A stretch of DNA of 64,000 nt from Eledone cirrhosa. Lineage: Eukaryota. Numbering within the stretch: position 1 is the first letter of the stretch; each line of letters begins with the position of its first letter. A model generated the notes under the pieces. It did not search any database. It worked only from the letters and a program-made list of their open reading frames with translations, and was not told the origin of the DNA. Made by a program: the position numbers and the translations under genes. Positions 4,745 through 62,137 of this stretch are shown here, piece by piece. The stretch lies in assembly GCA_964016885.1 (NCBI GenBank), contig OZ024748.1, positions 17,670,001-17,734,000 of the forward strand. The letters run 5' to 3'.

Positions 4745-6455
4745 GCAGCAAAAAAAATAGTAACAAATACAGTAACCTCAAAAATAGTAAAATCAGCAAT
4801 AGCTTCAACAATAGTAATAACAACAGCAGTAGCAACAACAATAGTTACAACAAAAGCAATAGCAACAAAACAGCAAGAACAACAACAGTAACAAGAACAG
4901 TAATATCAAGAACAATAGCAATAGCAAGAACAACAGCAATAGCAACAGAACAGTAATAACAGCAACAACACCAATAATAGTAACAACAGCAATAGCAACA
5001 AACACAGTAACAGCAATAGCAACAAAAACAGTAACAACAACAATAGCAACAAAAACAGTAACAACAGCAATAGCAACAAACACAGTAACAACAGCAATAG
5101 CAACAAACACAGTAACAACAGCAATAGCAACAAACACAGGAACAACAGCAGTAGCAACAAACACAGTAACAACAACAACAATAGCAACAAACACAGTAAC
5201 AACAACAATAGCAACAAACACAGTAACAACAACAATAGCAACAAACACAGTAACAACAGCAATAGCAACAAACACAGTAACAACAAACACAGGAACAACA
5301 GCAATAGCAACAAACACAGTAACAACAGCAATAGCAACAAACACAGTAACAACAATAGCAACAACACAGTAACAACAACAATAGCAACAAACACAGTAAC
5401 AACAACAACAATAGCAACAAACACAGGAACAACAGCAATAGCAACAAACACAGTAACAACAACAATAGCAACAAACACAGTAACAACAATAGCAACAAAC
5501 ACAGTAACAACAATAGCAACAAACACAGTGACAACAACAATAGCAACAACACAGTAACAACAACAATAGCAACAAACACAGTAACAACAACAGCAATAGC
5601 AACAAACACAGTAACAACAACAATAGCAACAAACACAGTGACAACAACGATAGCAACAAACACAGTAACAACAACAATAGCAACAAACACAGTAACAACA
5701 GCAATAGCAACAAACACAGTAACAACAACAATAGCAACAAACACAGTAACAACAGCAATAGCAACAAACACAGTAACAACAATAGCAACAACACAGTAAC
5801 AACAACAATAGCAACAAACACAGTAACAACAACAGCAATAGCAACAAACACAGGAACAACAGCAATAGCAACAACACAGTAACAACAGCAATAGCAACAA
5901 ACACAGTAACAACAATAGCAACAACACAGTAACAACAACAATAGCAACAACACAGTAACAACAACAATAGCAACAAACACAGTAACAACAACAGCAATAG
6001 CAACAAACACAGTAACAACAGCAATAGCAACAAACACAGTAACAACAACAATAGCAACAACACAGTAACAACAACAATAGCAACAAACACAGTAACAACA
6101 ACAACAATAGCAACAAACACAGTAACAACAACAGCAATAGCAACAAACACAGGAACAACAGCAATAGCAACAACACAGTAACAACAGCAATAGCAACAAA
6201 CACAGTAACAACAATAGCAACAACACAGTAACAACAACAATAGCAACAAACACAGTAACAACAACAGCAATAGCAACAAACACAGTAACAACAGCAATAG
6301 CAACAAACACAGTAACAACAACAATAGCAACAAACACAGTAACAACAACAATAGCAACAAACACAGTAACAACAACAATAGCAACAACAATAGCAACAAA
6401 CACAGTGACAACAGCAATAGAAACAGTAACAAAAACAGCAACTGTAACAAAACCA
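4745..6455. repeat. (CAA)-rich minisatellite with variable ~23-30 bp unit AACAAC(A/AGC)ATAGCAACAAACACAGT
   Basis: Direct tandem repetition; accounts for the three low-complexity minus-strand ORFs. Confidence 0.9.
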
Positions 6456-6626
6456 GCATCGTTCATGTACCATATAGCAATATAGGGGGGGGGGGGTTCT
6501 ACTACATAGTCAGTGAATGAAAGTCGATATTTGAAGAAAGTATTATAACGTTAAGGCACTTATAACAACTTGATCTTTCCACTTAACATATATATATATA
6601 TATATATGGTATATGCTATATATATG

Positions 6627-6817: not shown

Positions 6818-7097
6818 TGTTTACTCGAGAGAAGGCTACGTTGGTATGGACACGTGATGCGCATGAAAGTCGATAGCTGTATAACAAAGTGCAGGGCAAT
6901 AAAGATAGACGGTAGTCACGGAATAGGCAGACCTAGAAAAACCTGGGACGAGCTGATAAACTCCGACATCACACACTTACACCTCTCCAAGACAATGTCA
7001 CTGGACCGAGACCTTTGGCGGTACTCAGTAACAGAGAAGACCCGCCTTACCTAAATATATAGTAAAACCTACTCCAGCCAGTAGGCATCTCTAACAA
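6818..7097 (+). pseudogene. 5'-truncated RTE-clade LINE 3' end
   Basis: Translates [15 protein letters not shown]...GRPRKTW...DRDLWR...* (stop at 7054), the typical RTE ORF C-terminus. Confidence 0.8.
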
Positions 7098-8066
7098 AAT
7101 ATCTGCTTTATGTATTGTATACCTAATTAACATATACTAATTAACATATACTATTGAAATAAATATATAATTTTTAACTTAGTTAACATATAATTTATAT
7201 GCTACTACCGATGTAATACTTTATTTTATTTTTATTTGGGTTTCTTTTCCCTATTATTAACTTTAATTTAGTTATAATGTAATTAATAATCTACTACTGT
7301 TTGACTTCATAATTCTGCTTCAAATATTATAAACCTAACTAATTTACACCTTGGAAATCAATATGTTGACTATCTTTGGTTTAGTTGACATATGATTAAT
7401 GGTATACTTTTTTATTTTGTGATGCATAGATTTCGTATTTCCTAGCATTGAAAATATGTAAGAACATACATTGAATTAAGATATGGAAAATATTATAGGT
7501 TTCTTGAAACATATATTTACTTTGATCCCCTTCTCCAAACCCCCCCCTTTCCCCCATACTATTATCATCTGTTTTTGTAAGTGTATATGTATGAATTTGG
7601 GTAGATGGGTGTCTATATAGTTTTTTTTTTGGTATTTTTTTTTTTTTTTGGTATTTATTTCTAGATATAAAAATACATATATGAGCATGTAAATATGAAT
7701 GTAAGATTGAGTGTGTATATATGATTGTACATACATATGTATGTATATGTATGTATATATATGTATTATATATGTACGTGTATGTGAATGTGTGGTATAT
7801 ATATGTGTAGGTATATGTATATATGTGTGCGTATGTGTATGCTTATATATAGGAATATATATGTGTGTATATATGTATATATGTATATGCGTGTTTGCAT
7901 GTATGTGTATATGGGTTCTGTATATATTTGTATGTCTCTCTATTTATATGTTTATCTTCGTATCTATGTGATATATGTGTGTGTGTGTGCATGTATGCAT
8001 ATGTATGTGTTTATGTGTGTTTGTATGTGTGTGTGTGTATATATATGTATGTATTTGCGCACACTC

Positions 8067-8104
<38 letters not shown>

Positions 8105-8192
8105 GAGTGTGTATGTGTGTCTGTATGTGTGTGCGTGTGTATATATGTGTATATATATATATATGTGTATGTATGTGTATGTGTGTGTATAT

Positions 8193-8236
<44 letters not shown>

Positions 8237-8375
8237 ATATAGGTGTCTATGTGTGAATATATGTCTTTATTCGTATGTGTGTATTTATATATGTTTATAT
8301 TTAGGTGTATGTATGTATGTGTATGTATGTATGTATATGTATGTGTATGTATGTATATGTGTATATGTGTGTATA

Positions 8376-8412
<37 letters not shown>

Positions 8413-8504
8413 CTTTATTATTATTGTAATATAACTTATGTGTATATGTGTATAAGTGAGGTTGTGTATGTATATATACTATGTGTATATATAAGGGTAA
8501 TGAA

Positions 8505-8535
<31 letters not shown>

Positions 8536-8634
8536 CATGTCTGTATTTTATGTGCGTGTGTATATATATATATATATGTGTATGTGTGTATGTATGTATG
8601 TATGTATGCATATATGTGTACGTGTGTGTATGTT

Positions 8635-8682
<48 letters not shown>

Positions 8683-8793
8683 TGGATGTTTGTATGTGTT
8701 TTCATGGTGGTATGAGTGTGGGATATATATGTTTATGTATAAGTATATGTATGTGTATGTATATATATATGAGTCTATGTGTGTGTGTGTATA

Positions 8794-8842
<49 letters not shown>

Positions 8843-9964
8843 ATGTGTGTATGTGTTGCGCGTGTGTGTGTCCGTATTTTTATCTTTTTATCTTTTTATA
8901 TGTGTATGTGTATGTTCGTGTAAATGTATGTGTGTGTATGACAGTATAGGTATGTGTGTATGTATGTATGTGTAGATATCTCTATGTGCGCGTACATGTA
9001 CGTATGTGTATGTATATCTGTATGCGTATGTACATTATATTATATGTAATATATTTTATTGTTTTTATTTTTTTATTTTTCATAATTTATAGATACATTT
9101 ATATTAGGCTGTCTGTCTGACAACCTAATACTGACCCCTCCCCCCCCCTCCCACCTAATTTCTGTATCTTGATCTTGAAATGTGCGTACCAGTGTGTTTA
9201 TGTGAGTGACTTAATTTCTATTTGCTTATGATTTTATATCCACATATATAAATGTGAGTGGGGGGTGTGTGTGTGTTTGTGTGTTCGTGGTTATGTGTAT
9301 ATTTATATATATACGCACATGTATGTGTGATTATACTGATATGTGTGAGTATGAAAAAAATATATTTATATGCTTGACTACATAAGTATCATTGCGTTTC
9401 TTATCAGCGCATTAAGCTTACAGAGATATTAACCTTGACATTTTTTATTTGCATCCATCTTTTTAGTATGCACATACATATTATACACACATTATTGTAA
9501 AATGTGTGTAGGGTTTTACATGTATATACACACACCAAACTGCTTTTTAACCCTTTGTGTTTTCATTGGTCAATTTTGAACTGATATTTTGAATTGTTGT
9601 TATTATCAATAAATATACTTCATTATTTCTGAAGACGGCGTATATATGTGTTAGGTATGTATATTTAATCTTGATAATTTGTATAATTTTGTATAATTTT
9701 GTACATAGATCTGTTAAATATGCATACCAATTATAGCACATATATGCCCTAGAAACGATCGTTAAATAGTGAACTTTTTTTGTTTAATATAAGGAATTGT
9801 TTGTTCATTATTTGTTTAATATTTTATCTTGACTCTGTATACCGTTTATCTTTCACCGAAATTGGATTTTCATTACATCTCTTCTTTCCATGATATCCGG
9901 AATACATTGAGTTCTTCATACGGATTGGACACTACCGTAAACTCTTGGTAGATTTATCTACATA
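7098..9964 (+). repeat. 5' pseudo-LTR of the PLE
   Basis: AATATCTGCTTTATG...GGTAGATTTATCTACATA repeated at 13295-16152; offset drifts only from 6197 to 6188. Confidence 0.93.
9619..9773 (+). ncRNA. Type I hammerhead ribozyme with extended stem II (pLTR copy 1)
   Basis: Stem I TTCATTATTT/AAATAGTGAA (10 bp); CTGAAGA 9629-9635; stem II 9637-9668 pairs with 9714-9748; GAAAC-GATC-GTT 9752-9763. Confidence 0.75.
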
Positions 9965-10116
9965 ATTTTGCTCCTATTTTCACGGAAATATTCGTATTTT
10001 TGTACTGTATGTGTGTATTAATTTTATATTTATGTATATACATATATATATGTATGATTTTGTAAACCCATATACATTTAGTTGAGCTCTTTCAATTGTC
10101 CATCATCCATATCACA

Positions 10117-12558
10117 ATGGAAAAACAATATTTAGGAACCTCCTTAAAAAACATACCAATACCTTCTAAGGACGACTTCTTACTCCTTATGATTCAGAAA
10201 ACTAATAATTTTATCAGAAGGGTTAGATGGAGAGCCTACCACTTTGATAGAAAATCTAAACAAGCAGATCGGAAATATATGTATGATTTCAACACTTACA
10301 AGAATCCACCACACAACTTTTTACTTGAAGACTTCGAGAAAGACCTTTTTAATTTAATTAAACATCTCAAATTTAAAAAGTATAAATCCGTCTTTCAAAA
10401 GGACCTTGATTCTACCCTATTGGACCTAAAAAAGTCTAAAAAAATCCATGTCCACTCGGACAAAACTGGTAACTTGTATCATATGGATATTGAACATTAT
10501 AATGAGTTCATATATAAAGAACTCAGAAAAAGTTATAAAAAATCTAATAATGCGTCACTCACCAATATCAACAACAAAACACACAACATAGTAAAAAAAC
10601 TAAATATTGAAGATAGAACTGAACCTTTGGCATTGAGAAGTCCACACTTCAACCTGAAAGATCACAAATCTAACTTTAACTCTAATCCTTCTATTAGACT
10701 TATATGTCCCTCCAAATCAGATATTGGAATAATTAGCAAAAAAATTTTAGATAGAGTCATCCCACAAATAAGAAAATACGTTATTTTACCACTCTGGGAA
10801 AATACCTCCCAGGTAATTAATTGGTTTAAAAATATTAGGTGTAAATCTTCTGCTTCTTTCCTACAGTTTGATATAGATAACTATTATTCTTCTATATCAC
10901 CCATACTCCTGAACAAAGCATTAATATTTGCTAAAAATAGATCTAATTTAACTTCGGATGACATTAACATTATTACACATGCTAGACAAACACTTATTGA
11001 ATTTCAGAATGAATACTGGACCAGAAACACTTATAGTAATCTTTTTGATATTACTATGGGTTCAAGCGATTCTGCCCAAATTACTGATCTTGTGGGCCTC
11101 TTTCTCCTTTTCAACATAAATGCCTCTTTTCCCCACCTCAAAGGTGGTTTATATCGTGATGACTGTCTTCTTCTTTCTAACAACCTTAGCCTTTCAGAAA
11201 TCGAAAAAAACAAAAAGCATATTAGAACTTTCCTTAAGGACTATTATAATCTTAATATTACTTTTGAAAAAACAAGTAAAGTAGTAAATTTCCTAGATAT
11301 AACTTTAGATTTAGCTACGGGTATATACCAACCTTACCATAAACCTAACCAAAACTTACATTACATACACTCACAATCTAATCACCCTAAATCTATCCTT
11401 AAAAACCTTGCATATAATATATCACTTAGAATTTCTAACCTTTCTTCTAACCAAGATGTATTTGATAAAAATGCGACCTTTTATAATGAAGCTCTAGATA
11501 GAAGTGGCCACAAAAATAGATTAGAGTATATAACTTCTACTAAAAATACTGAAAACATACAGCATAATATTACCAACAAACACCAAATGAAAGGTACACA
11601 CCTAAATGCCACCCACAGTATACCCCAAAATACTAAATCTTCTAATATAAAGTATAGTAACCCTCAAAAAACTACTCATCATAAGACTATAATAAATATT
11701 AATAATAAAACTCCTAATAAAAAAGATAAAACACCTAAATCTACAAATATAACTAAAAATAGTTGTGGTGAGATCATTAACATTATTCCTCCTAGTAAAA
11801 ATCATGATACAACATATAAAAATAATAAAAATAATAAACAACATAGAAACCGTAATAGACGAGTTACTTGGTATAATGCTCCTTTTAATTTACAAGTTAA
11901 GGATAATATTGCTAAAAAATTTTTTTATATCCTTGAGAAAAACTTCCCGCCAAACCACAAATACCATCAAATCTTAAATAGGTCTACAGTTAAATTCTCA
12001 TATTCTACAACAAATAACATAAAACAAAATATAAGTGCATATAATGCATATAAATGTAAGAAAACTATAAGTATACCACCAGTACATCAAATTAACAATA
12101 ATATCTCCTCAAATACAGAATTAACGAAAGGATGTAACTGTAGAAACAAAACAAACTGCCCATTAAAAGGGAATTGTCTTGTTAACAACATAGTCTATAA
12201 ATGTAATGTTAAAACTAAAGATTCTATTTGCTCATATATAGGAGCTACCTCTAACAATTTTAAGACAAGGTATAATACCCACAAACATAGCTTTAAAAAT
12301 GCCGCACTGGCTAATACAACATCTCTAGCAGAAAAAATCAATAGTTATAAAAATAAAAATATAAAATATGATTTGACCTGGAGTGTGCTCAAAAGAGCCA
12401 CCCCTTATCAAAATAATAGAAAGGAATGTAGATTATGTTCCCAAGAACTATTTGAAATAATGAAGTCTAGGGATATCTTATTAAATAAAAGACAGGAATT
12501 AATTATATCGTGTAATCATAAACTAAAAAAAACATTTAAATATTATAAACCTAATTAA
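10117..12558 (+). CDS. PLE polyprotein: reverse transcriptase plus GIY-YIG endonuclease (813 aa from first ATG)
   Basis: SLKNIPIPSK N-terminus, SDKT, FDIDNYYSSI (motif A), TMGSSDSAQI (B), YRDD (C), FLDITL, YHKP..SNHP thumb, CNCRNKTNCPLKGNC linker, IVY...YIG..T...F..R...H, CRLC..E...LN.R.E; no stops or frameshifts. Confidence 0.95.
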   Translation: MEKQYLGTSLKNIPIPSKDDFLLLMIQKTNNFIRRVRWRAYHFDRKSKQADRKYMYDFNTYKNPPHNFLLEDFEKDLFNLIKHLKFKKYKSVFQKDLDSTLLDLKKSKKIHVHSDKTGNLYHMDIEHYNEFIYKELRKSYKKSNNASLTNINNKTHNIVKKLNIEDRTEPLALRSPHFNLKDHKSNFNSNPSIRLICPSKSDIGIISKKILDRVIPQIRKYVILPLWENTSQVINWFKNIRCKSSASFLQFDIDNYYSSISPILLNKALIFAKNRSNLTSDDINIITHARQTLIEFQNEYWTRNTYSNLFDITMGSSDSAQITDLVGLFLLFNINASFPHLKGGLYRDDCLLLSNNLSLSEIEKNKKHIRTFLKDYYNLNITFEKTSKVVNFLDITLDLATGIYQPYHKPNQNLHYIHSQSNHPKSILKNLAYNISLRISNLSSNQDVFDKNATFYNEALDRSGHKNRLEYITSTKNTENIQHNITNKHQMKGTHLNATHSIPQNTKSSNIKYSNPQKTTHHKTIININNKTPNKKDKTPKSTNITKNSCGEIINIIPPSKNHDTTYKNNKNNKQHRNRNRRVTWYNAPFNLQVKDNIAKKFFYILEKNFPPNHKYHQILNRSTVKFSYSTTNNIKQNISAYNAYKCKKTISIPPVHQINNNISSNTELTKGCNCRNKTNCPLKGNCLVNNIVYKCNVKTKDSICSYIGATSNNFKTRYNTHKHSFKNAALANTTSLAEKINSYKNKNIKYDLTWSVLKRATPYQNNRKECRLCSQELFEIMKSRDILLNKRQELIISCNHKLKKTFKYYKPN

Positions 12559-13294
12559 TAACATTATTCTAGAATTTAATTTAATTTAAATGTTAGTTAA
12601 CCTATAAATTTAATTTAATTAATATTTTATTACAGATGAGAAAATATTATGTAATCATTAATTTTGAAAAACCTTTAAATATTACTAATATATATTCAGT
12701 AATTTAATTTATAGATTAATTTTAACTTATTTTAACCTTTTATTATAATTTTTTAATTTAGTTTAACCTTTTATTATAAAATTTTTTTTATTATAATTCT
12801 TTTACAGATAAAATATAACAAAATAATATCATGTATCCTATGACGGAGAAAGAATTTTTAGTATTATTGACCTAATTAATATACATTTTGGAAATATATT
12901 TATTATTTGGTTTTAGCTTTAATCAACCTAAAACTTTAATTTTAATTTTAATTTGCTTAAAATTAGTATCCTTGTACAGACGAATTGCAGAATTTCATGT
13001 AATCATAGAATGGGATGTGTTTTTGGATATATACCTAGTTAATATATTCTGTGCAAATTTTTTGAAAAAGATATGTATATCTATATGTATATGTATATGT
13101 GTGTATTGTATGTGTATCTGTATGTATATTTATGTGACTATATATGTATGTATGTGTGTATATATATGTATATATATATATATATATGTGTATGTATATG
13201 TATATGTATGTGTATGTGTATGTATATGTATGTGTATGCGTATTAATTTTGATTTTTATTTGCATATAATTATATTATGCTATTGATGAAATAC

Positions 13295-14382
13295 AATATC
13301 TGCTTTATGTATTGTATACCTAATTAACATATACTAATTAACATATACTATTGAAATAAATATATAATTTTTAACTTAGTTAACATATAATTTATATGCT
13401 ACTACCGATGTAATACTTTATTTTATTTTTATTTGGGTTTCTTTTCCCTATTATTAACTTTAATTTAGTTATAATGTAATTAATAATCTACTACTGTTTG
13501 ACTTCATAATTCTGCTTCAAATATTATAAACCTAACTAATTTACACCTTGGAAATCAATATGTTGACTATCTTTGGTTTAGTTGACATATGATTAATGGT
13601 ATACTTTTTTATTTTGTGATGCATAGATTTCGTATTTCCTAGCATTGAAAATATGTAAGAACATACATTGAATTAAGATATGGAAAATATTATAGGTTTC
13701 TTGAAACATATATTTACTTTGATCCCCTTCTCCAAACCCCCCCCTTTCCCCCATACTATTATCATCTGTTTTTGTAAGTGTATATGTATGAATTTGGGTA
13801 GATGGGTGTCTATATAGTTTTTTTTTTGGTATTTTTTTTTTGGTATTTATTTCTAGATATAAAAATACATATATGAGCATGTAAATATGAATGTAAGATT
13901 GAGTGTGTATATATGATTGTACATACATATGTATGTATATGTATGTATATATATGTATTATATATGTACGTGTATGTGAATGTGTGGTATATATATGTGT
14001 AGGTATATGTATATATGTGTGCGTATGTGTATGCTTATATATAGGAATATATATGTGTGTATATATGTATATATGTATATGCGTGTTTGCATGTATGTGT
14101 ATATGGGTTCTGTATATATTTGTATGTCTCTCTATTTATATGTTTATCTTCGTATCTATGTGATATATGTGTGTGTGTGTGCATGTATGCATATGTATGT
14201 GTTTATGTGTGTTTGTATGTGTGTGTGTGTATATATATGTATGTATTTGCGCACACTCACATACATATATATATATATATATATATATGTATGTGAGTGT
14301 GTATGTGTGTCTGTATGTGTGTGCGTGTGTATATATGTGTATATATATATATATGTGTATGTATGTGTATGTGTGTGTATAT

Positions 14383-14426
<44 letters not shown>

Positions 14427-14565
14427 ATATAGGTGTCTATGTGTGAATATATGTCTTTATTCGTATGTGTGTATTTATATATGTTTATATTTAGGTGTAT
14501 GTATGTATGTGTATGTATGTATGTATATGTATGTGTATGTATGTATATGTGTATATGTGTGTATA

Positions 14566-14602
<37 letters not shown>

Positions 14603-14694
14603 CTTTATTATTATTGTAATATAACTTATGTGTATATGTGTATAAGTGAGGTTGTGTATGTATATATACTATGTGTATATATAAGGGTAATGAA

Positions 14695-14725
<31 letters not shown>

Positions 14726-14824
14726 CATGTCTGTATTTTATGTGCGTGTGTATATATATATATATATGTGTATGTGTGTATGTATGTATGTATGTATGCA
14801 TATATGTGTACGTGTGTGTATGTT

Positions 14825-14866
<42 letters not shown>

Positions 14867-14981
14867 CATCTGGATGTTTGTATGTGTTTTCATGGTGGTA
14901 TGAGTGTGGGATATATATGTTTATGTATAAGTATATGTATGTGTATGTATATATATATGAGTCTATGTGTGTGTGTGTATA

Positions 14982-15030
<49 letters not shown>

Positions 15031-16146
15031 ATGTGTGTATGTGTTGCGCGTGTGTGTGTCCGTATTTTTATCTTTTTATCTTTTTATATGTGTATGTGTA
15101 TGTTCGTGTAAATGTATGTGTGTGTATGACAGTATAGGTATGTGTGTATGTATGTATGTGTAGATATCTCTATGTGCGCGTACATGTACGTATGTGTATG
15201 TATATCTGTATGCGTATGTACATTATATTATATGTAATATATTTTATTGTTTTTATTTTTTTATTTTTCATAATTTATAGATACATTTATATTAGGCTGT
15301 CTGTCTGACAACCTAATACTGACCCCTCCCCCCCCCTCCCACCTAATTTCTGTATCTTGATCTTGAAATGTGCGTACCAGTGTGTTTATGTGAGTGACTT
15401 AATTTCTATTTGCTTATGATTTTATATCCACATATATAAATGTGAGTGGGGGGTGTGTGTGTGTTTGTGTGTTCGTGGTTATGTGTATATTTATATATAT
15501 ACGCACATGTATGTGTGATTATACTGATATGTGTGAGTATGAAAAAAATATATTTATATGCTTGACTACATAAGTATCATTGCGTTTCTTATCAGCGCAT
15601 TAAGCTTACAGAGATATTAACCTTGACATTTTTTATTTGCATCCATCTTTTTAGTATGCACATACATATTATACACACATTATTGTAAAATGTGTGTAGG
15701 GTTTTACATGTATATACACACACCAAACTGCTTTTTAACCCTTTGTGTTTTCATTGGTCAATTTTGAACTGATATTTTGAATTGTTGTTATTATCAATAA
15801 ATATACTTCATTATTTCTGAAGACGGCGTATATATGTGTTAGGTATGTATATTTAATCTTGATAATTTGTATAATTTTGTATAATTTTGTACATAGATCT
15901 GTTAAATATGCATACCAATTATAGCACATATATGCCCTAGAAACGATCGTTAAATAGTGAACTTTTTTTGTTTAATATAAGGAATTGTTTGTTCATTATT
16001 TGTTTAATATTTTATCTTGACTCTGTATACCGTTTATCTTTCACCGAAATTGGATTTTCATTACATCTCTTCTTTCCATGATATCCGGAATACATTGAGT
16101 TCTTCATACGGATTGGACACTACCGTAAACTCTTGGTAGATTTATC

Positions 16147-16152
<6 letters not shown>
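13295..16152 (+). repeat. 3' pseudo-LTR of the PLE
   Basis: Direct repeat of 7098-9964, followed immediately by (TA)n. Confidence 0.93.
15807..15961 (+). ncRNA. Type I hammerhead ribozyme with extended stem II (pLTR copy 2)
   Basis: Same sequence as 9619-9773 at offset 6188. Confidence 0.75.
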
Positions 16153-17180
<1,028 letters not shown>

Positions 17181-19039: not shown

Positions 19040-19769
19040 CACACAAGTGTGTGTATGCATGTGTGTGTGTGTGTACATCCAATATATTACTCTTCCAAAT
19101 CTAAAACTGTTGGCAGCTAAGACTGCCTCCAGCAATATGTCTGCTTCATTTTAACAAAATGTTTAAGTTTTAATATTTCTATTTTATATCTATTTCCATA
19201 GTCAATATTCAGCTAGATAATATATCTTTATATTCTTTCATTGTTTTACTAGTTTCTCCAGTCATTAAACTTCACTATGGCCATGCTGGGGCATATATGA
19301 TCATTACTGTTTAGCAGCCATTTTTCCATGCTTACATGGGTTAAACCGGTGGTCCATGCAAGGAGGCAAGTCTGGCCAGAGTTGACCACACCATACCTTA
19401 CTCTGATGAGGACTGTATTCTCAGAAAAGTCCAGAAACATCAATTTGATTGGCCTAACTGTTTTATTATTTGTGAGGGGAAAGAATTTGATTCATACTTA
19501 GTCTCTCCTTAGTGAAGCTGACTTTGGCAGGATTTGAACTGAGAATGTAAGGGACATAACTAAATGCTGCAAAGGATTTTACTCAATGCTTTAATGATTC
19601 TACCTATCTACTGCCTTGTTTCAACATGGCCATCGATTTTGGAGGAGAAGAAAGTCGATTAAATTAACCCAAGTCTATTACTGGTACTTTATTCTATCAA
19701 CCCCGTAAGGATGAAAGACAAAGCTAACCTCGGTGGGATTTGAACTCAAAACGTAAAGGATCAAAACTA

Positions 19770-26595: not shown

Positions 26596-27149
26596 ATACA
26601 ATATATTAACAAATGGAAACTATATTTATAAAACCATATTTATTTCATTATACATATTTCAAGGACACCAAAGCAAATTATGGTGCGCTTTCATCAGATA
26701 AAATATAATTGTTTCTACTTTAGGCACAAGGCCAGCAATTATCCAGTGCATTACTGGTACTTTATTTTATCGACGCTGTAAGGATGAAAGGCAAAGTAAA
26801 CCTCGGCGGGATTTGAACTCAGACCGTAAAGGGACATAACTATGCTGGAAAGCATGGCGTCTGATTCTCTACCGATACTGCCAATCCACCGCCCATCAGA
26901 TAAAATATAATATAGATCAGTTTTATAAACAAATATTGACATACCCTTAAAGAATGTGACCATGTCATGAGCTTCCAACCGACATGGTCGCATTCTTTAA
27001 GGGTATGTCAATATTTGTTTATAAAACTGATCTATATTATATTTTATCTGATGAAAGCGCACCATAATTTGCTTTGGTGTCCTTGAAATATGTATAATGA
27101 AATAAATATGGTTTTATAAATATAGTTTCCATTTGTTAATATATTGTAT
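26596..27149. mobile_element. Fold-back element with hammerhead-like motif in both arms; left arm interrupted by a SINE
   Basis: Arms meet at spacer 26967-26980; CTGATGA-AAGCGCACCA...TGGTGTCCTT-GAAA at 27048-27088. Confidence 0.75.
26710..26893 (-). mobile_element. SINE family A with 18-bp target-site duplication
   Basis: TSD CATCAGATAAAATATAAT at 26692-26709 and 26894-26911. Confidence 0.9.
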
Positions 27150-36829: not shown

Positions 36830-37637
36830 TGTTGTTAATGTTGTTGTTGTTGCTTGATATTATTGTTGTCAGTGTTGTTGTTGTTGTTGTTGTTGTTGTT
36901 GCTTGATATTATTGTTGTCAGTGTTGTTGTTGTTGTTGTTGTTGTTGTTGCTTGATATTATTGTTGTCAGTGTTGTTGTTGTTGTTGTTGTCAGTGTTGT
37001 TGTTAATGTTGTTATTGTTGTCAGTGTTGTTGTTATTGTTGTTGCTATCATTGTTGTTATTGTTGTCAGTGTTTTTGTTGTTGTTACTGTTGTTGTTGTT
37101 GTTGCTATCATTGTTGTTATTGTTGTCAGTGTTGTTGTTATTGTTGTTGTTGTTGTTGCTATCAGTGTTGTTGTTGTTGTTGTTGTTGCTATCATTGTTG
37201 TTGTTGGCAGTGTTGTTGTTGTTATTGTTGTCAGTGTTGTTGTTATTGTTGTTGTTGTTGCTATCATTGTTGTTGTTGGCAGTGTTGTTGTTGTTGTTAT
37301 TGTTGTCAGTGTTGTTGCTGTTGTTGCTGCTGTTGTTGCTATGATTGTTGTTGCTGTTGCTATCGTTGTTGTTGGCAGTGTTGTTGTTATTGTTGTTGCT
37401 AGTGTTGTTATTGTTATTATTGTTGCTAGTGTTGTTGGTGTTGTTATTGTTGTGGCCCTTATTGTGTTGCTGTTGTGTGTTATTGTTATGTATTGTTATT
37501 GTTGTTGTTACTGTTATTCAGGCTGTTAATGTTGTTGTTGTTGCTGCTGCAGTGGTTGCTATAGTTGTTATTGTTGTTCTAGTGGTTGTTGTATTTGCTA
37601 TTGTTATCCCTACTATTTTTACTATTGATATTATTAC

Positions 37638-37733
<96 letters not shown>

Positions 37734-38005
37734 GGTTACTATTGGTATTATTGTTGTTGCTGCTGCTGTGGTTGATATTATCATTGTTGTTATTGTTGTT
37801 GTTGTTATTGTTGTTGCTGTGATTGTTATTGTCGTTGTTGTTGTTGCTGTGGTTGTTATTGGCATTGTTGTTGTTGTTGCTGTGGTTGCTATTGGCACAG
37901 TTGTTGTTGTTGTTGTTGCTGTGATTATTATTGTCATTGTTGTTGTTGTTGCTGTGGTTGCTATTGGCACTGTTGTTGTTGTTGTTGCTGTGATTATTAT
38001 TGTCG

Positions 38006-38037
<32 letters not shown>

Positions 38038-38205
38038 GCTGTCATTGTTGTTGTTGTTGTTATTAATATTGTTGTTGTTGTTGTTTTTACTGTGGTTACT
38101 ATTGATATTATTATTAAAATAAAGTACCAGTAATACACTGTGATAATTGCTGGCCTTTTGACAAAAGTAGAAACAATTATTGTTGTTGTTGTTGTTGTTG
38201 CCATT
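36830..38205. repeat. Compound (GTT)n/(GCT)n trinucleotide tract
   Basis: Direct reading. Confidence 0.95.
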
Positions 38206-38211
38206 GTCATC

Positions 38212-38424
38212 GGTGTGGAGTGGAAGTATCGGTAGAGGGTCGGAGGCCATGCTTTGCAGCATAGAGTTACGTCCCTTTACAATCTGAGTTCAAATCCTGC
38301 CGAGGTTAACTTTGCCTTTCATCCTTACAGAGTCGATAAAATAAAGTACCAGTAATACACTGGGTAATTGCTGGCCTTGTCCCAAAAGTAGAAACAATTA
38401 TTATTATTATTATTATTATTATTA
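38212..38424 (+). mobile_element. SINE family A
   Basis: A/B boxes, Meta-like core, (ATT)n tail. Confidence 0.8.
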
Positions 38425-41959: not shown

Positions 41960-42185
41960 TTTCACATCACGCATAACACAACTACCAAGTGAAAGACCTG
42001 CTAATCAAGTCCTGTATTGGTACCTTCATGGAAAAGGCTGTAGAGGAGGGTCGAAGATGATCTGGTGGTGACAGACAATCAACACTCCTGAAACCCATCA
42101 ACAAGAGCTGGAATGATGTATTGATAGATGCAACTGACCTTGGTCATTGGAGCACTTTGGCTGCCTCGTGTGTCTCAAGACATGG
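41960..42185 (+). pseudogene. Decayed RTE LINE C-terminus, progenitor of the 71-bp satellite
   Basis: ITQLPSERPANQVLYWYLHGKGCRGGSKMIW, frameshift, then LLKPINKSWNDVLIDATDLGHWSTLAASCVSRHG. Confidence 0.7.
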
Positions 42186-45100
42186 GATGTATTGATAGAT
42201 GCAACTGACCTTGGTCATTGGAGCACTTTGGCTGGCTCGTGTGTCTCAAGACATGGGATGTATTGATAGATGCAACTGACCTTGGTCATTGTAGCACTTT
42301 GGCTGCCTCATGTGTCTCAAGATGTTGGATGTATTGATAGATGCAACTGACCTTGGTCATTGGAGCACTGTGGCTGGCTCATGTGTCTCAAGACATGGGA
42401 TGTATTGATAGATGCAATTGACCTTGGTCATTGTAGCACTTTGGCTGCCTCATGTGTCTCAAGACGTGGGATGTATTGATAGATGTAACTGACCGTGGTC
42501 ATTGTAGCACTTTGGCTGCCTCATATGTCTCAAGACATGGGATGTATTGATAGATGTAACTGACCGTGGTCATTGTAGCACTGTGGCTGCCTCATATGTC
42601 TCAAGACATGGGATGTATTGATAGATGTAACTGACCGTGGTCATTGTAGCACTGTGGCTGGCTCATGTGTCTCAAGACATGGGATGTATTGATAGATGCA
42701 ATTGACCTTGGTCATTGTAGCACTGTGGCTGCCTCATATGTCTCAAGACATGGGATGTATTGATAGATGCAATTGACCTTGGTCATTGGAGCACTGTGGC
42801 TGGCTCATGTGTCTCAAGACATGGGATGTATTGATAGATGCAATTGACCTTGGTCATTGGAGCACTGTGGCTGGCTCATGTGTCTCAAGATGTTGGATGT
42901 ATTGATAGATGCAACTGACCTTGGTCATTGTAGCACTTTGGCTGCCTCATCTGTCTCAAGACATGGGATGTATTGATAGATGCAACTGACCTTGGTCATT
43001 GTAGCACTTTGGCTGCCTCATGTGTCTCAAGACATGGGATGTATTGATAGATGCAACTGACCTTGGTCATTGTAGCACTTTGGCTGCCTCATGTGTCTCA
43101 AGACATGGGATGTATTGATAGATATAACTGACCTTGGTCATTGTAGCACTTTGGCTGCCTCATGTGTCTCAAGACATGGGATGTATTGATAGATGCAACT
43201 GACCGTGGTCATTGGAGCACTTTGGCTGCCTCATATGTCTCAAGACATGGGATGTATTGATAGATGCAATTGACCTTGGTCATTGTAGCACTTTGGCTGC
43301 CTCATGTGTCTCAAGACATGGGATGTATTGATAGATGCAACTGACCTTGGTCATTGTAGCACTGTGGCTGGCTCATGTGTCTCAAGATGTTGGATGTATT
43401 GATAGATGCAACTGACCTTGGTCATTGTAGCACTTAGGCTGCCTCATATGTCTCAAGACATGGGATGTATTGATAGATGCAACTGACCTTGGTCATTGGA
43501 GCACTTTGGCTGCCTCATGTGTCTCAAGACATGGGATGTATTGATAGATGCAACTGACCTTGGTCATTGTAGCACTTTGGCTGCCTCATGTGTCTCAAGA
43601 CATGGGATGTATTGATAGATGCAACTGACCTTGGTCATTGTAGCACTTTGGCTGCCTCATGTGTCTCAAGACATGGGATGTATTGATAGATGCAACTGAC
43701 CTTGGTCATTGTAGCACTGTGGCTGGCTCATGTGTCTCAAGACATGGGATGTATTGATAGATGCAACTGACCTTGGTCATTGTAGCACTTTGGCTGCCTC
43801 ATGTGTCTCAAGACATGGGATGTATTGATAGATGCAACTGACCTTGGTCATTGTAGCACTTTGGCTGCCTCATGTGTCTCAAGACATGGGATGTATTGAT
43901 AGATGCAACTGACCTTGGTCATTGTAGCACTTTGGCTGCCTCATGTGTCTCAAGACATGGGATGTATTGATAGATGTAACTGACCTTGGTCATTGTAGCA
44001 CTTTGGCTGCCTCATGTGTCTCAAGACATGGGATGTATTGATAGATGCAACTGACCTTGGTCATTGTAGCACTTTGGCTGCCTCATGTGTCTCAAGACAT
44101 GGGATGTATTGATAGATGCAACTGACCTTGGTCATTGTAGCACTGTGGCTGCCTCATGTGTCTCAAGATGTTGGATGTATTGATAGATGCAACTGACCTT
44201 GGTCATTGTAGCACTTTGGCTGCCTCATGTGTCTCAAGACATGGGATGTATTGATAGATGTAACTGACCTTGGTCATTGTAGCACTTTGGCTGCCTCATG
44301 TGTCTCAAGACATGGGATGTATTGATAGATGTAACTGACCTTGGTCATTGTAGCACTTTGGCTGCCTCATGTGTCTCAAGACATGGGATGTATTGATAGA
44401 TGCAACTGACCTTGGTCATTGTAGCACTGTGGCTGCCTCATGTGTCTCAAGATGTTGGATGTATTGATAGATGCAACTGACCTTGGTCAATGTAGCACTT
44501 TGGCTGCCTCATGTGTCTCAAGACATGGGATGTATTGATAGATGTAACTGACCTTGGTCATTGTAGCACTTTGGCTGCCTCATGTGTCTCAAGACATGGG
44601 ATGTATTGATAGATGCAACTGACCTTGGTCATTGTAGCACTTTGGCTGCCTCATGTATCTCAAGACATGGGATGTATTGATAGATGTAACTGACCTTGGT
44701 CATTGTAGCACTTTGGCTGCCTCATGTGTCTCAAGACATGGGATGTATTGATAGATGCAACTGACCTTGGTCATTGTAGCACTTTGGCTCCCTCATGTGT
44801 CTCAAGACATGGGATGTATTGATAGATGCAACTGACCTTGGTCATTGTAGCACTGTGGCTGGCTCATGTGTCTCAAGATGTTGGATGTATTGATAGATGC
44901 AACTGACCTTGGTCATTGTAGCACTTTGGCTCCCTCATGTGTCTCAAGACATGGGATGTATTGATAGATGCAACTGACCTTGGTCATTGGAGCACTTTGG
45001 CTGCCTCATGTGTCTCAAGACATGGGATGTATTGATAGATGCAACTGACCTTGGTCATTGTAGCACTGTGGCTGCCTCATGTGTCTCAAGATGTTGGATG

Positions 45101-48100
45101 TATTGATAGATGCAACTGACCTTGGTCATTGTAGCACTTTGGCTCCCTCATGTGTCTCAAGACATGGGATGTATTGATAGATGCAATTGACCTTGCTCAT
45201 TGTAGCACTTTGGCTCCCTCATGTGTCTCAAGACATGGGATGTATTGATAGATGCAATTGACCTTGGTCATTGTAGCACTGTGGCTCCCTCATGTGTCTC
45301 AAGATGTTGGATGTATTGATAGATGCAATTGACCTTGGTCATTGTAGCACTTTGGCTGCCTCATGTGTCTCAAGATGTTGGATGTATTGATAGATGCAAT
45401 TGACCTTGGTCATTGTAGCACTGTGGCTGGCTCGTGTGTCTCAAGACATGGGATGTATTGATAGATGCAACTGACCTTGGTCATTGTAGCACTGTGGCTG
45501 CCTCATATGTCTCAAGATGTTGGATGTATTGATAGATGCAATTGACCTTGGTCATTGTAGCACTTTGGCTGCCTCATGTGTCTCAAGACATGGGATGTAT
45601 TGATAGATGCAATTGACCTTGGTCATTGTAGCACTTTGGCTCCCTCATGTGTCTCAAGATGTTGGATGTATTGATAGATGCAACTGACCTTGGTCATTGT
45701 AGCACTTTGGCTGCCTCATGTGTCTCAAGACATGGGATGTATTGATAGATGCAACTGACCTTGGTCATTGTAGCACTTTGGCTGCCTCATGTGTCTCAAG
45801 ACATGGGATGTATTGATAGATGCAATTGACCTTGGTCATTGTAGCACTTTGGCTGCCTCATGTGTCTCAAGACATGGGATGTATTGATAGATGCAACTGA
45901 CCTTGGTCATTGTAGCACTGTGGCTGCCTCATGTGTCTCAAGACATGGGATGTATTGATAGATGCAACTGACCTTGGTCATTGTAGCACTGTGGCTGCCT
46001 CATGTGTCTCAAGATGTTGGATGTATTGATAGATGCAACTGACCTTGGTCATTGTAGCACTGTGGCTGGCTCATGTGTCTCAAGACATGGGATGTATTGA
46101 TAGATGCAACTGACCGTGGTCATTGTAGCACTGTGGCTGGCTCATGTGTCTCAAGACATGGGATGTATTGATAGATGTAACTGACCGTGGTCATTGTAGC
46201 ACTTTGGCTGCCTCATATGTCTCAAGACATGGGATGTATTGATAGATGTAACTGACCGTGGTCATTGTAGCACTTTGGCTGCCTCATGTGTCTCAAGACA
46301 TGGGATGTATTGATAGATGCAACTGACCTTGGTCATTGTAGCACTGTGGCTGGCTCATGTGTCTCAAGATGTTGGATGTATTGATAGATGCAACTGACCT
46401 TGGTCATTGTAGCACTTTGGCTCCCTCATGTGTCTCAAGACATGGGATGTATTGATAGATGCAACTGACCTTGGTCATTGGAGCACTTTGGCTGCCTCAT
46501 GTGTCTCAAGACATGGGATGTATTGATAGATGCAACTGACCTTGGTCATTGTAGCACTGTGGCTGCCTCATGTGTCTCAAGATGTTGGATGTATTGATAG
46601 ATGCAACTGACCTTGGTCATTGTAGCACTTTGGCTCCCTCATGTGTCTCAAGACATGGGATGTATTGATAGATGCAATTGACCTTGGTCATTGTAGCACT
46701 TTGGCTCCCTCATGTGTCTCAAGACATGGGATGTATTGATAGATGCAATTGACCTTGGTCATTGTAGCACTGTGGCTCCCTCATGTGTCTCAAGATGTTG
46801 GATGTATTGATAGATGCAATTGACCTTGGTCATTGTAGCACTTTGGCTGCCTCATGTGTCTCAAGATGTTGGATGTATTGATAGATGCAATTGACCTTGG
46901 TCATTGTAGCACTGTGGCTGGCTCGTGTGTCTCAAGACATGGGATGTATTGATAGATGCAACTGACCTTGGTCATTGTAGCACTGTGGCTGCCTCATATG
47001 TCTCAAGATGTTGGATGTATTGATAGATGCAATTGACCTTGGTCATTGTAGCACTTTGGCTGCCTCATGTGTCTCAAGACATGGGATGTATTGATAGATG
47101 CAACTGACCTTGGTCATTGTAGCACTTTGGCTGCCTCATGTGTCTCAAGACATGGGATGTATTGATAGATGCAACTGACCTTGGTCATTGTAGCACTTTG
47201 GCTGCCTCATGTGTCTCAAGACATGGGATGTATTGATAGATGCAATTGACCTTGGTCATTGTAGCACTTTGGCTCCCTCATGTGTCTCAAGATGTTGGAT
47301 GTATTGATAGATGCAACTGACCTTGGTCATTGTAGCACTTTGGCTGCCTCATGTGTCTCAAGACATGGGATGTATTGATAGATGCAACTGACCTTGGTCA
47401 TTGTAGCACTTTGGCTGCCTCATGTGTCTCAAGACATGGGATGTATTGATAGATGCAATTGACCTTGGTCATTGTAGCACTTTGGCTGCCTCATGTGTCT
47501 CAAGACATGGGATGTATTGATAGATGCAAATGACCTTGGTCATTGTAGCACTGTGGCTGCCTCATGTGTCTCAAGACATGGGATGTATTGATAGATGCAA
47601 CTGACCTTGGTCATTGTAGCACTGTGGCTGCCTCATGTGTCTCAAGATGTTGGATGTATTGATAGATGCAACTGACCTTGGTCATTGTAGCACTGTGGCT
47701 GGCTCATGTGTCTCAAGACATGGGATGTATTGATAGATGCAACTGACCGTGGTCATTGTAGCACTGTGGCTGGCTCATGTGTCTCAAGACATGGGATGTA
47801 TTGATAGATGTAACTGACCGTGGTCATTGTAGCACTTTGGCTGCCTCATATGTCTCAAGACATGGGATGTATTGATAGATGTAACTGACCGTGGTCATTG
47901 TAGCACTTTGGCTGCCTCATGTGTCTCAAGACATGGGATGTATTGATAGATATAACTGACCTTGGTCATTGTAGCACTTTGGCTGCCTCATATGTCTCAA
48001 GACATGGGATGTATTGATAGATGTAACTGACCGTGGTCATTGGAGCACTTTGGCTGCCTCATGTGTCTCAAGACATGGGATGTATTGATAGATGCAACTG

Positions 48101-51100
48101 ACCTTGGTCATTGTAGCACTTTGGCTGCCTCATGTGTCTCAAGACATGGGATGTATTGATAGATGCAACTGACCTTGGTCATTGTAGCACTGTGGCTGGC
48201 TCATGTGTCTCAAGATGTTGGATGTATTGATAGATGCAACTGACCTTGGTCATTGTAGCACTTTGGCTGCCTCATGTGTCTCAAGATGTTGGATGTATTG
48301 ATAGATGCAATTGACCTTGGTCATTGTAGCACTGTGGCTGCCTCATGTGTCTCAAGATGTTGGATGTATTGATAGATGCAACTGACCGTGGTCATTGTAG
48401 CACTGTGGCTCCCTCATGTGTCTCAAGACATGGGATGTATTGATAGATGCAACTGACCTTGGTCATTGTAGCACTTTGGCTCCCTCATGTGTCTCAAGAC
48501 ATGGGATGTATTGATAGATGCAACTGACCTTGGTCATTGTAGCACTTTGGCTGCCTCATGTGTCTCAAGACATGGGATGTATTGATAGATGCAACTGACC
48601 TTGGTCATTGTAGCACTTTGGCTGCCTCATGTGTCTCAAGACATGGGATGTATTGATAGATGCAATTGACCTTGGTCATTGTAGCACTTTGGCTGCCTCA
48701 TGTGTCTCAAGATGTTGGATGTATTGATAGATGCAATTGACCTTGGTCATTGTAGCACTGTGGCTGCCTCATGTGTCTCAAGATGTTGGATGTATTGATA
48801 GATGCAACTGACCTTGGTCATTGTAGCACTGTGGCTGCCTCATGTGTCTCAAGATGTTGGATGTATTGATAGATGCAACTGACCTTGGTCATTGTAGCAC
48901 TGTGGCTGCCTCATGTGTCTCAAGATGTTGGATGTATTGATAGATGCAACTGACCTTGGTCATTGTAGCACTGTGGCTGGCTCATGTGTCTCAAGATGTT
49001 GGATGTATTGATAGATGCAACTGACCTTGGTCATTGTAGCACTGTGGCTGGCTCATGTGTCTCAAGATGTTGGATGTATTGATAGATGCAACTGACCGTG
49101 GTCATTGTAGCACTTTGGCTGCCTCATGTGTCTCAAGACATGGGATGTATTGATAGATGCAACTGACCTTGGTCATTGTAGCACTTTGGCTGCCTCATGT
49201 GTCTCAAGACATGGGATGTATTGATAGATGCAACTGACCGTGGTCATTGTAGCACTTTGGCTCCCTCATGTGTCTCAAGACATGGGATGTATTGATAGAT
49301 GCAATTGACCTTGGTCATTGTAGCACTGTGGCTCCCTCATGTGTCTCAAGATGTTGGATGTATTGATAGATGCAATTGACCTTGGTCATTGTAGCACTGT
49401 GGCTGCCTCATGTGTCTCAAGATGTTGGATGTATTGATAGATGCAACTGACCTTGGTCATTGTAGCACTGTGGCTGGCTCATGTGTCTCAAGATGTTGGA
49501 TGTATTGATAGATGCAACTGACCTTGGTCATTGTAGCACTTTGGCTCCCTCATGTGTCTCAAGACATGGGATGTATTGATAGATGCAACTGACCTTGGTC
49601 ATTGTAGCACTTTGGCTGCCTCATGTGTCTCAAGACATGGGATGTATTGATAGATGCAATTGACCTTGGTCATTGTAGCACTTTGGCTGCCTCATGTGTC
49701 TCAAGATGTTGGATGTATTGATAGATGCAATTGACCTTGGTCATTGTAGCACTTAGGCTGCCTCATGTGTCTCAAGATGTTGGATGTATTGATAGATGCA
49801 ACTGACCTTGGTCATTGTAGCACTGTGGCTGCCTCATGTGTCTCAAGATGTTGGATGTATTGATAGATGCAACTGACCTTGGTCATTGTAGCACTTTGGC
49901 TGCCTCATGTGTCTCAAGATGTTGGATGTATTGATAGATGCAACTGACCTTGGTCATTGTAGCACTGTGGCTGCCTCATGTGTCTCAAGATGTTGGATGT
50001 ATTGATAGATGCAACTGACCTTGGTCATTGTAGCACTGTGGCTGCCTCATGTGTCTAAAGATGTTGGATGTATTGATAGATGCAACTGACCTTGGTCATT
50101 GTAGCACTGTGGCTGCCTCATGTGTCTCAAGATGTTGGATGTATTGATAGATGCAACTGACCTTGGTCATTGTAGCACTGTGGCTGCCTCATGTGTCTAA
50201 AGATGTTGGATGTATTGATAGATGCAACTGACCTTGGTCATTGTAGCACTTTGGCTGCCTCATGTGTCTCAAGATGTTGGATGTATTGATAGATGCAACT
50301 GACCTTGGTCATTGTAGCACTTTGGCTCCCTCATGTGTCTCAAGACATGGGATGTATTGATAGATGCAACTGACCTTGGTCATTGTAGCACTTTGGCTGC
50401 CTCATGTGTCTCAAGACATGGGATGTATTGATAGATGCAATTGACCTTGGTCATTGTAGCACTTTGGCTGCCTCATGTGTCTCAAGATGTTGGATGTATT
50501 GATAGATGCAATTGACCTTGGTCATTGTAGCACTGTGGCTGCCTCATGTGTCTCAAGATGTTGGATGTATTGATAGATGCAACTGACCTTGGTCATTGTA
50601 GCACTGTGGCTGCCTCATGTGTCTCAAGATGTTGGATGTATTGATAGATGCAACTGACCTTGGTCATTGTAGCACTGTGGCTGGCTCATGTGTCTCAAGA
50701 TGTTGGATGTATTGATAGATGCAACTGACCGTGGTCATTGTAGCACTTTGGCTGCCTCATGTGTCTCAAGACATGGGATGTATTGATAGATGCAACTGAC
50801 CTTGGTCATTGTAGCACTTTGGCTGCCTCATGTGTCTCAAGACATGGGATGTATTGATAGATGCAACTGACCGTGGTCATTGTAGCACTTTGGCTCCCTC
50901 ATGTGTCTCAAGACATGGGATGTATTGATAGATGCAATTGACCTTGGTCATTGTAGCACTGTGGCTCCCTCATGTGTCTCAAGATGTTGGATGTATTGAT
51001 AGATGCAATTGACCTTGGTCATTGTAGCACTGTGGCTGCCTCATGTGTCTCAAGATGTTGGATGTATTGATAGATGCAACTGACCTTGGTCATTGTAGCA

Positions 51101-61529: not shown

Positions 61530-62137
61530 CGCTTTTCCTACTATATCAAGTGTTAAACTAATATATTTTTTCATTGTACTGTGTTGTTTGCTTTGTTGTT
61601 TCTGTTTACATTTTGCACACACACACACATACATATATATAGCTAAGCACCTGAAGACTAGATCACAACTTTGACCCCTCTTACAATCTGGAGACATGGT
61701 CGATATCCAAACAAGGCAAGTATGGAAAAACAGACGTAAAAATGATGATGATGACGATTATCATATGCCCTTGAAACCTCAGGTAGTGCTTTTATTCTGT
61801 ATATGATCATAAATAATATATATATATAAGTAAAATGATAGAAAAAAAAGGGGTTGAAAAGCGCACCTAGTATATATATTAAGAGTCTTTATAACATGTA
61901 CAAAAACTGATGTTAGCAAAGCCTGCTTTCTCCACTTTGTATTATCAAAACATTTATTATTAGGTTGAATTTTAAAAAAAATACTCCTGCTTGTTGATTC
62001 TCGAGAATAACAAATGTTTTGATAATCCAAAATACAGAAAGCATGCTTTGCTAACATTTTTGTTCATATTCTAAGGATAATTTATATATACATACCACTT
62101 GCGCTTTTCAAAACCCTTTTTATTCATTATTTTCCTT

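Follow-up and report, generated by a model that had tools for sequence, protein, structure and literature searches.

Copy ends of a hammerhead-bearing Penelope-type retrotransposon in Eledone cirrhosa point to long copies templated by an RNA without a capped end

Penelope-like elements are the closest relatives of telomerase. The locus described here bears on two questions, namely how these elements restore their tandem repeats and which function their hammerhead ribozymes have. The window, that is the whole stretch of 64,000 nucleotides that was analysed (contig OZ024748.1, positions 17,670,001 to 17,734,000), contains an intact copy of a young and abundant Penelope-type retrotransposon which by its motifs belongs to the Hydra clade. 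The full insertion comprises 9055 nt or 1.46 units and has the following parts (window coordinates; positions with a plus or minus sign are counted from the predicted cut):

7098..9964, plus strand: upstream pseudo-LTR (pLTR), second pass truncated at its 5′ end, 2.87 kb, mostly microsatellite-rich 3′ UTR
9619..9773, plus strand: type I hammerhead 1, stem I 9619–9628/9764–9773, predicted cut after 9763 (GUU)
Parts of hammerhead 1, plus strand: CUGAAGA 9629–9635; long stem II 9636–9751; GAAA 9752–9755; palindrome 9754–9763
9620..9624, plus strand: likely transcription start (A 9622 in TCATT), where 5′ ends of copies pile up with an extra G
9764..15951, plus strand: predicted unit-length monomer of 6188 nt, deduced from the hammerhead cut sites
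9827 (+64; equivalent 16015), plus strand: fixed end of the inverted arm, where 42 of 47 inverted arms begin
9961..9964 (+198 to +201; equivalent 16149–16152), plus strand: fixed end of the direct arm, continuing into (TA)n in 4126 exact matches
10117..12558, plus strand: 813-aa ORF, Penelope-type reverse transcriptase with CxCx5C linker and C-terminal GIY-YIG-type endonuclease
13295..16152, plus strand: downstream pseudo-LTR, from the repeat alignment with the upstream pseudo-LTR
15807..15961, plus strand: type I hammerhead 2, identical to hammerhead 1, predicted cut after 15951
16153..16189, no strand: (TA)n target receiving the 3′ end of the element

The two pseudo-LTRs differ by three slippage indels and by no substitution. 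The ORF has 117 homologues (best E value 1e-163), with which the reverse transcriptase motifs and the SYIG...FKTRY stretch align, as is characteristic of single-ORF EN+ Penelope-like elements (PLE EN+). A Pfam search with the ORF gave no significant family and a PDB search only a weak match to a retron reverse transcriptase. The element shares with the Hydra clade (PMC8557442) the motifs RWR/RWK and DKT, the CxCx5C linker, CxxC and CxH, the absence of CCHH, the (TA)n target and the hammerhead in the repeat; the clade assignment rests on these motifs as judged against the published description, this element having RWR where the description gives RWK. In contrast to the published members, which are generally short (<~3 kb), the unit measures 6.2 kb including a 3.4-kb microsatellite-rich 3′ region, and many intact tandem copies are present. 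The period of 6188 nt is particular to the window copy, its relatives ranging from ~6.05 to 7.4 kb. The family also displays the partial tandem pLTRs, the inverted 5′ copy and the tail known from PLE EN+; the inverted arm is absent from the window copy and detectable in 46 of 90 sampled copies. A parent of the window copy was sought as well, but the sole other locus with its rare base differs at ~60 positions and is therefore not the parent.

A scan of the window recovered the type I motif (10-bp stem I, CUGAAGA, a 116-nt stem II region and GAAAC-GAUC-GUU) at 9629 and 15817, with predicted cuts exactly 6188 nt apart; five further, weaker motifs were also let through by this loose scan. The first-pass annotation of the window had proposed twin hammerheads which cut after 9763 and 15951 and flank the ORF, the first cut lying ~350 nt upstream of the ATG. 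Both statements hold, as the two motifs are identical and the distance to the ATG is 353 nt. The core positions C3–A9, G12–A14, A15.1–U16.1 and H17 as well as stems I–III agree with a type I hammerhead, whereas the base of stem II is C.A instead of the G10.1–C11.1 pair. By our hand count the published Hydra table has U.U at this place in 14 of 26 rows and C.A in PLE-X1_cBra, and cuts after U also have a precedent in the published hammerhead table (PMC8557442). An Rfam search at the gathering score gave no matches. Folding of 9615–9775 yields the hammerhead shape at −48.7 kcal/mol (z −6.0), a value matched by none of 200 shuffles. Across subfamilies the core is constant and one stem II pair occurs as G-C, G-U and A-U. 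Among 77 distant relatives 14 carry hammerheads, all on the sense strand and none in shuffles, with a stem II region of 10–25 nt compared to 116 nt here. A dimer of the two motifs is predicted to fold at −111.0 kcal/mol, two monomers at −96.2.

How the unit is copied was tested on the DNA copies of the family across the genome (4126 exact 3′ ends). The fixed end of the direct arms, +198 to +201, is likely the main start of reverse transcription and +64 likely the second. At the other end of the copies, among the arms that reach −130 in the first pass of copying, 23 of 60 direct and 30 of 41 inverted ones stop within −155 to −130. Of 100 listed junctions, 34 have an additional G in front of 9622, compared to 5 that have it in front of the preceding base (hand count); counting by script gave 8 of 27 against 1 of 27. 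Such a G is a recognised cap signature (PMC11702581). Transcription hence likely starts at 9622, which lies in the first strand of stem I, 142 nt before the cut. The stops with their cap-like G imply that a capped, uncut RNA exists, and this RNA likely served as template for the commonest short copies. The suggestion that any read-through transcript would be processed independently of a promoter was therefore too broad, the element having a likely capped start of its own that had been missed. In these counts inverted arms shorter than ~60 nt are under-represented, and three ends at −382, probably alignment drop-offs, were kept in the background. The possibility that the short copies form a separate SINE-like lineage was rejected, as 22 short arms stand no further from the multi-unit copies than 37 long ones do (P=0.7).

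The second pass is different. None of 84 arms stops at the cap site at 9622, compared to the 23 of 60 in the first pass (Fisher P=9e-11; P=4e-7 when restricted to 44 independent loci). Therefore, the long copies need a template without a capped end. Just inside the cut, at +1 to +14, 7 of 100 second-pass arms end where 0.5 would be expected, and the rate is similar in the first pass (4 of 73); these ends may reflect stalling at the stem I base or joining within the U run. The other second-pass arms continue and reach up to three junctions, the 100 listed of 289 internal junctions including 11 arrays with at least two and 3 arrays with three (hand count). Since both copying starts lie within the monomer, 64 and 201 nt downstream of the cut, a linear monomer alone would yield only 64–201 nt, and longer copies call for a circle or a jump.

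The repeats within one copy are identical in 50 of 60 pairs and share private changes; in one insertion each of the three repeats carries two changes which occur only three times genome-wide. In two arrays one repeat deviates at shared polymorphisms, so that templates are sometimes mixed; one pair was left out of this comparison as its repeats are not homologous beyond −23. A test for recombination among 61 haplotypes did not locate the joint at the cut: neither the cut nor the start site is spanned by an excess of incompatibility, and one weak mosaic turned up. Of 11 private shared changes 4 are A>G, too small a number to serve as a tracer of RNA editing.

We suggest that the short copies derive from capped, uncut RNA and, as the somewhat more probable reading, that the long copies derive from a unit-length RNA circle which was cut by the ribozymes and re-joined. 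Transcription would start at 9622 within stem I, and an RNA with a single hammerhead is predicted to remain uncut because its stem III has only two base pairs. Copying of this RNA from +201 and +64 would run off the cap and give arms of 342 and 205 nt. When transcription reads through into the second repeat, the two palindromic stem III segments could pair and both sites would be cut; a host ligase would then close the monomer. With +201 and +64 as starting sites, the enzyme would prime at both flanks of a break in (TA)n and roll round the circle until a random stop, producing 1.x- to 3-mers such as the 1.46-mer of the window. By rolling past the junction it would thereby regenerate two repeats. 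The support for the circle comes entirely from DNA copies. The first-pass annotation had a linear or circular monomer copied past the junction: the copying finds indirect support, as the long copies behave as if made from a twice-read template without a capped 5′ end, while the linear form would not suffice by itself.

The ligated 6.2-kb circle appears to be the simplest template. Next to it stands a monomer that is excised but stays linear, the enzyme jumping within one molecule, from its cut 5′ end to its 3′ end, and in this way rolling although no covalent circle is formed. Such a jump explains the missing cap stop, the stops inside the cut and the matched repeats equally well. End-to-end jumps, however, usually add or lose bases, whereas all 83 of 83 second-pass read-through arms cross the cut without an indel and about nine in ten arms pass it; we regard this route as unlikely. 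It is very unlikely that the ribozyme is unused and that a capped, terminally redundant RNA is copied with a jump from the cap to the matching 3′ repeat, as in retroviral strand transfer. Here too one template would be copied twice, the only mosaic breaks between −145 and −86 (with three sites only) and haplotypes are common to short and long copies; but failure at the cap would have to drop from 23/60 to 0/84 between the passes, and the cap-G scars to be expected are seen in 0 of 121 read-through arms, all 121 of which are free of indels at the copying start site.

Finally, the tandems might arise by read-through of existing arrays or from host promoters, by repeated insertion into the element's own end or by duplication at the DNA level, the ribozyme serving only to remove the cap or to aid translation, or being a passenger. 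Tandem insertion has been the view in the earlier literature (PMC2377424), uncut RNA was the main substrate in vitro for the anole element (PMC11167929), self-cleavage can promote cap-independent translation (PMC13725137), and assembly polishing could inflate the identity of repeats. Nevertheless, ~87% of the multi-unit loci have one internal junction (hand count), and transcripts of these loci would impose a cap stop that is never seen; the repeats are matched even across subfamilies ~10% apart, and inverted arms are joined to random 5′ ends, which indicates single insertion events. We therefore consider this group of explanations quite unlikely.

Excision and circularisation have been put forward before: in 2014 Cervera and de la Pena hypothesised self-cleavage, ligation to circles and more-than-unit copying for pLTR hammerheads, which resemble the present ones in their type I fold, their short palindromic stem III and the predicted dimer (PMC4209133). 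No in vivo evidence accompanied that model. In the present family it is tested on the genomic copies, which add a second class of templates, the capped ones. Poseidon of Anolis carolinensis, PAc (PMC11167929), likewise starts reverse transcription at two internal sites downstream of the ribozyme cut, which delimit a tail; its targets are AT-rich and both strands are primed, but its tail measures 30–40 nt instead of 137 nt and its starts lie in the ORF instead of the 5′ leader. Results from related elements weigh against the circle. In PAc, ribozyme mutants left in vitro insertion unaffected, no RNA-seq reads ended at the cut, and Frangieh et al. 2024 proposed a multi-copy linear mRNA (PMC11167929). 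Naiads form tandems without canonical hammerheads (PMC8557442). The animal non-LTR retrozymes also consist of tandem units with a type I hammerhead; for them circles have been shown, and RtcB ligates far better than the ribozyme (PMC7229834; bioRxiv 10.64898/2026.07.22.740005). These are non-coding circles of 170–400 nt (PMC7229834), in contrast to the 6188-nt unit with its 813-aa ORF, for which we propose an autonomous coding circle ~20x larger.

For this family the genome thus provides large-sample evidence that long copies stem from a template without a capped end, together with exact coordinates for the start (9622), the cut (9763/9764) and the starts of copying (+64 and +201). Whether this is an autonomous animal retrotransposon with a protein-coding RNA circle of 6–7 kb as replicative intermediate, its ribozyme acting as a two-copy sensor, seems to us evenly balanced. 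Capped RNA with a single ribozyme would stay uncut and give stubs only, whereas read-through RNA of a complete two-repeat locus would be cut, circularised and copied from both sides of the break. If true, a coding circle with such a sensor would explain how Penelope elements regenerate their repeats.

The summed contig depth of four runs of unknown kind from one study rises at 9614–9720 and falls after 9964; as these runs may be the source sample, the profile was left out of the evidence. It also counts against the circle that, of 8811 arms genome-wide, only 250 deviate at the position 11 nt ahead of the cut, with an about 2-fold excess at the cut itself (hand count).

The two hammerheads lie in a Penelope-like retrotransposon with the following parts.

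7098–16152: insertion of 9055 nt, made up of one unit (6188 nt) and a direct repeat (2.87 kb), terminating in (TA)n
10117–12558: open reading frame of 813 aa

The first-pass annotation had recognized hammerheads one element period apart on both sides of the ORF, and this arrangement was confirmed. The direct repeats (pLTRs, 7098–9964 and 13295–16152) differ by 0 substitutions and three slippage indels. In each lies a hammerhead of type I whose core is intact; its stem I has 10 bp, its stem II region spans 116 nt, and its stem III consists of two pairs within the palindrome 9754–9763, the predicted cut following GUU at 9763 and 15951. The fold has a z value of −6.0, and two copies co-folded via the palindrome reach −111.0 kcal/mol compared with −96.2 apart. 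At the base of stem II, C.A replaces G-C. By hand count of a published table (PMC8557442), 14 of the 26 Hydra rows have U.U at this position and one other PLE has C.A; 10 of the 26 Hydra rows cut after U. Of 77 distant relatives, 14 also have hammerheads, always on the sense strand, and shuffles gave none. Self-cleavage in the window is a predicted activity.

Out of 7992 candidates scored, 117 were homologues of the ORF. The alignment contains RWR, DKT, the CxCx5C linker, CxxC and CxH and is devoid of CCHH, a combination published as marking the Hydra clade of Penelope-like elements (PMC8557442). By these motifs the element is placed in the Hydra clade, in which the lengths of its unit, its stem II and its tail (137 nt) are unusual. 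The leader following the cut (9764–10116) has five upstream ATGs with frames of 3–18 codons and folds with a z value of −3.6. On the 5′ side (6900–7097) the apparent 3′ end of another retroelement adjoins the element, and neither an inverted arm nor (TA)n is present there.

Circularization is a known hypothesis and not new with this element. Cervera and de la Pena proposed that the pLTR hammerheads cut a precursor whose ends are possibly ligated to circles templating the more-than-unit copies, a model put forward without in vivo evidence (PMC4209133). We therefore took the genomic copies of the family as evidence of which RNAs had served as templates. Among the papers listed from the openly accessible literature on Penelope elements, hammerheads and tandem copies, we found no test of the circle model on copy ends. 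Frangieh et al. described two internal starts of copying, and reported that ribozyme mutants left insertion unaffected and that no reads ended at the cut (PMC11167929).

In the following, positions are counted from the predicted cut (+1 = 9764), the direct and inverted arms are the oppositely oriented parts of one insertion, and passes are copying trips round the unit. Exact 3′ ends at +198/201 running into (TA)n were found 4126 times (control 0). Among the first 90 of these copies an inverted arm is detectable in 46, and 42 of 47 inverted arms begin at +64. Both starts are inside the monomer, and thus a linear monomer would yield at most 201 nt.

On the first pass, 60 of 90 direct arms reach −130 and 23 of these stop within −155 to −130, mostly at −141 to −139, as do 30 of 41 inverted arms within the same interval. 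Position −141 is A 9622 in TCATT, which we take to be an initiator-like motif, and this exact base is the end of at least 1001 arms in the genome. By hand count a G precedes −141 in 34 of 100 listed arms, compared with 5 of 100 one base earlier; about 10 of the 34 are explained by the partner arm and 3 by duplication. A script gave 8/27 versus 1/27 (90 loci). Such an extra G is described as a cap mark in L1 insertions (PMC11702581). As first-pass arms pile up at −141 with the extra G, capped RNA with an uncut ribozyme appears to be a major template. The G located 11 nt before the cut is kept in 8561 arms and not in 250 genome-wide; 36 of 100 listed deviating arms have their end at most two bases from the cut, about twice the expectation, 6 of them by stem I joins. 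The short arms were also considered as a separate lineage, which was rejected.

Genome-wide, 289 places continue past +201 into the ORF. We mapped 100 listed places, 80 with 10 kb and 20 with 1 kb, and the downstream ribozyme is visible in 71 of the 80. Second-pass arms reach −130 in 84 cases and none stops there (Fisher 9e-11 versus the first pass; 7e-9 for 61 verified arms and 4e-7 for 44 independent loci). Indels are absent at the cut site in 83/83 second-pass arms and at the start site in 121/121 read-through arms. Seven second-pass ends fall at +1, 2, 3, 7, 8, 13 and 14 (expected 0.5), two from one locus and six with a verified downstream ribozyme. These ends are only suggestive, because stem I stalling or U-run joining could mimic them and the first-pass rate is similar (4/73). 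By hand count among the junctions listed, 11 arrays have at least two internal junctions and three have three. In one insertion (L380 and L381, G000:C3:197975865-197976257) both arms exceed unit length, and they join head to head, one at +1 and the other at +13.

The two repeats of a copy are identical over ∼450 nt in 31 of 42 pairs (pair L196 dropped), the median other element being ∼29 changes away. In a larger set 50 of 60 pairs are identical over ∼310 nt, with a mean of 0.9 changes and 1.6 to the nearest other element; assembly polishing could inflate these identities. At 10 of 44 loci both repeats have changes absent from every other sampled element. The 3-Gb assembly contains the two changes of one such locus at three places, which all belong to a single insertion, namely both repeats of one arm and the opposite arm. 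The matching points to a single template copied twice. Counter to this, in the arrays L229/L230 and L205/L206 one repeat differs at family-polymorphic positions, which suggests occasional template mixing or conversion.

To sum up what the copies show, copying starts at two fixed sites, the stop at 9622 is confined to the first pass, multimers occur, and the repeats match and are scar-free. We suggest that transcription starts at 9622 and that RNA with one ribozyme would remain capped and uncut, giving stubs; speculatively, AATAAA at 15796 could terminate such messages ahead of the second ribozyme. Read-through RNA with two ribozymes would cleave as a dimer and be closed by a host ligase, by analogy with RtcB, reported to close retrozymes (PMC7229834). 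The enzyme would then start to roll at +201 and +64, on either side of a (TA)n break.

Long copies are probably templated by such a ribozyme-made circle. A jump of the enzyme at the cut, in place of a covalent circle, is unlikely. Read-through or DNA-level routes appear somewhat less probable again; plain read-through fails, since most loci with several units are 1.x-mers, and copying of a linear RNA transcribed from one of these has to end at the RNA's own cap in the second pass. A jump at the cap is the least probable. The copy data themselves fit a covalent circle and an efficient jump, at either the cut or the cap, equally well; in a recombination test among 61 haplotypes, incompatible sites were not enriched over the cut or the start site, and one weak mosaic was seen. 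The proposal of the first-pass annotation that read-through RNA could be processed into a linear or circular 6188-nt monomer (9764–15951) is thus partly supported, and strengthened by the independent evidence of the genomic copies, with the qualification that capped uncut RNA coexists.

Further hammerhead-like motifs occur in the window. At 26650–27110 an identical short motif (CUGAUGA, stem I of 8 bp, cut after A) lies on both strands head to head and probably represents the stub of a different Penelope family. Three looser motifs (19398–19515, 61645–61791 and 62645–62726) may be due to chance or mark the ends of other PLEs; the one at 61651 likewise has a long stem II region. Long trinucleotide-based repeats at 4805–6473 and 37518–38262 yield open low-complexity frames which are probably not genes. 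At approximately 42044–56900, ∼210 copies of a 71-bp unit (92–97% identity, 45% GC) form a homogeneous tandem array.
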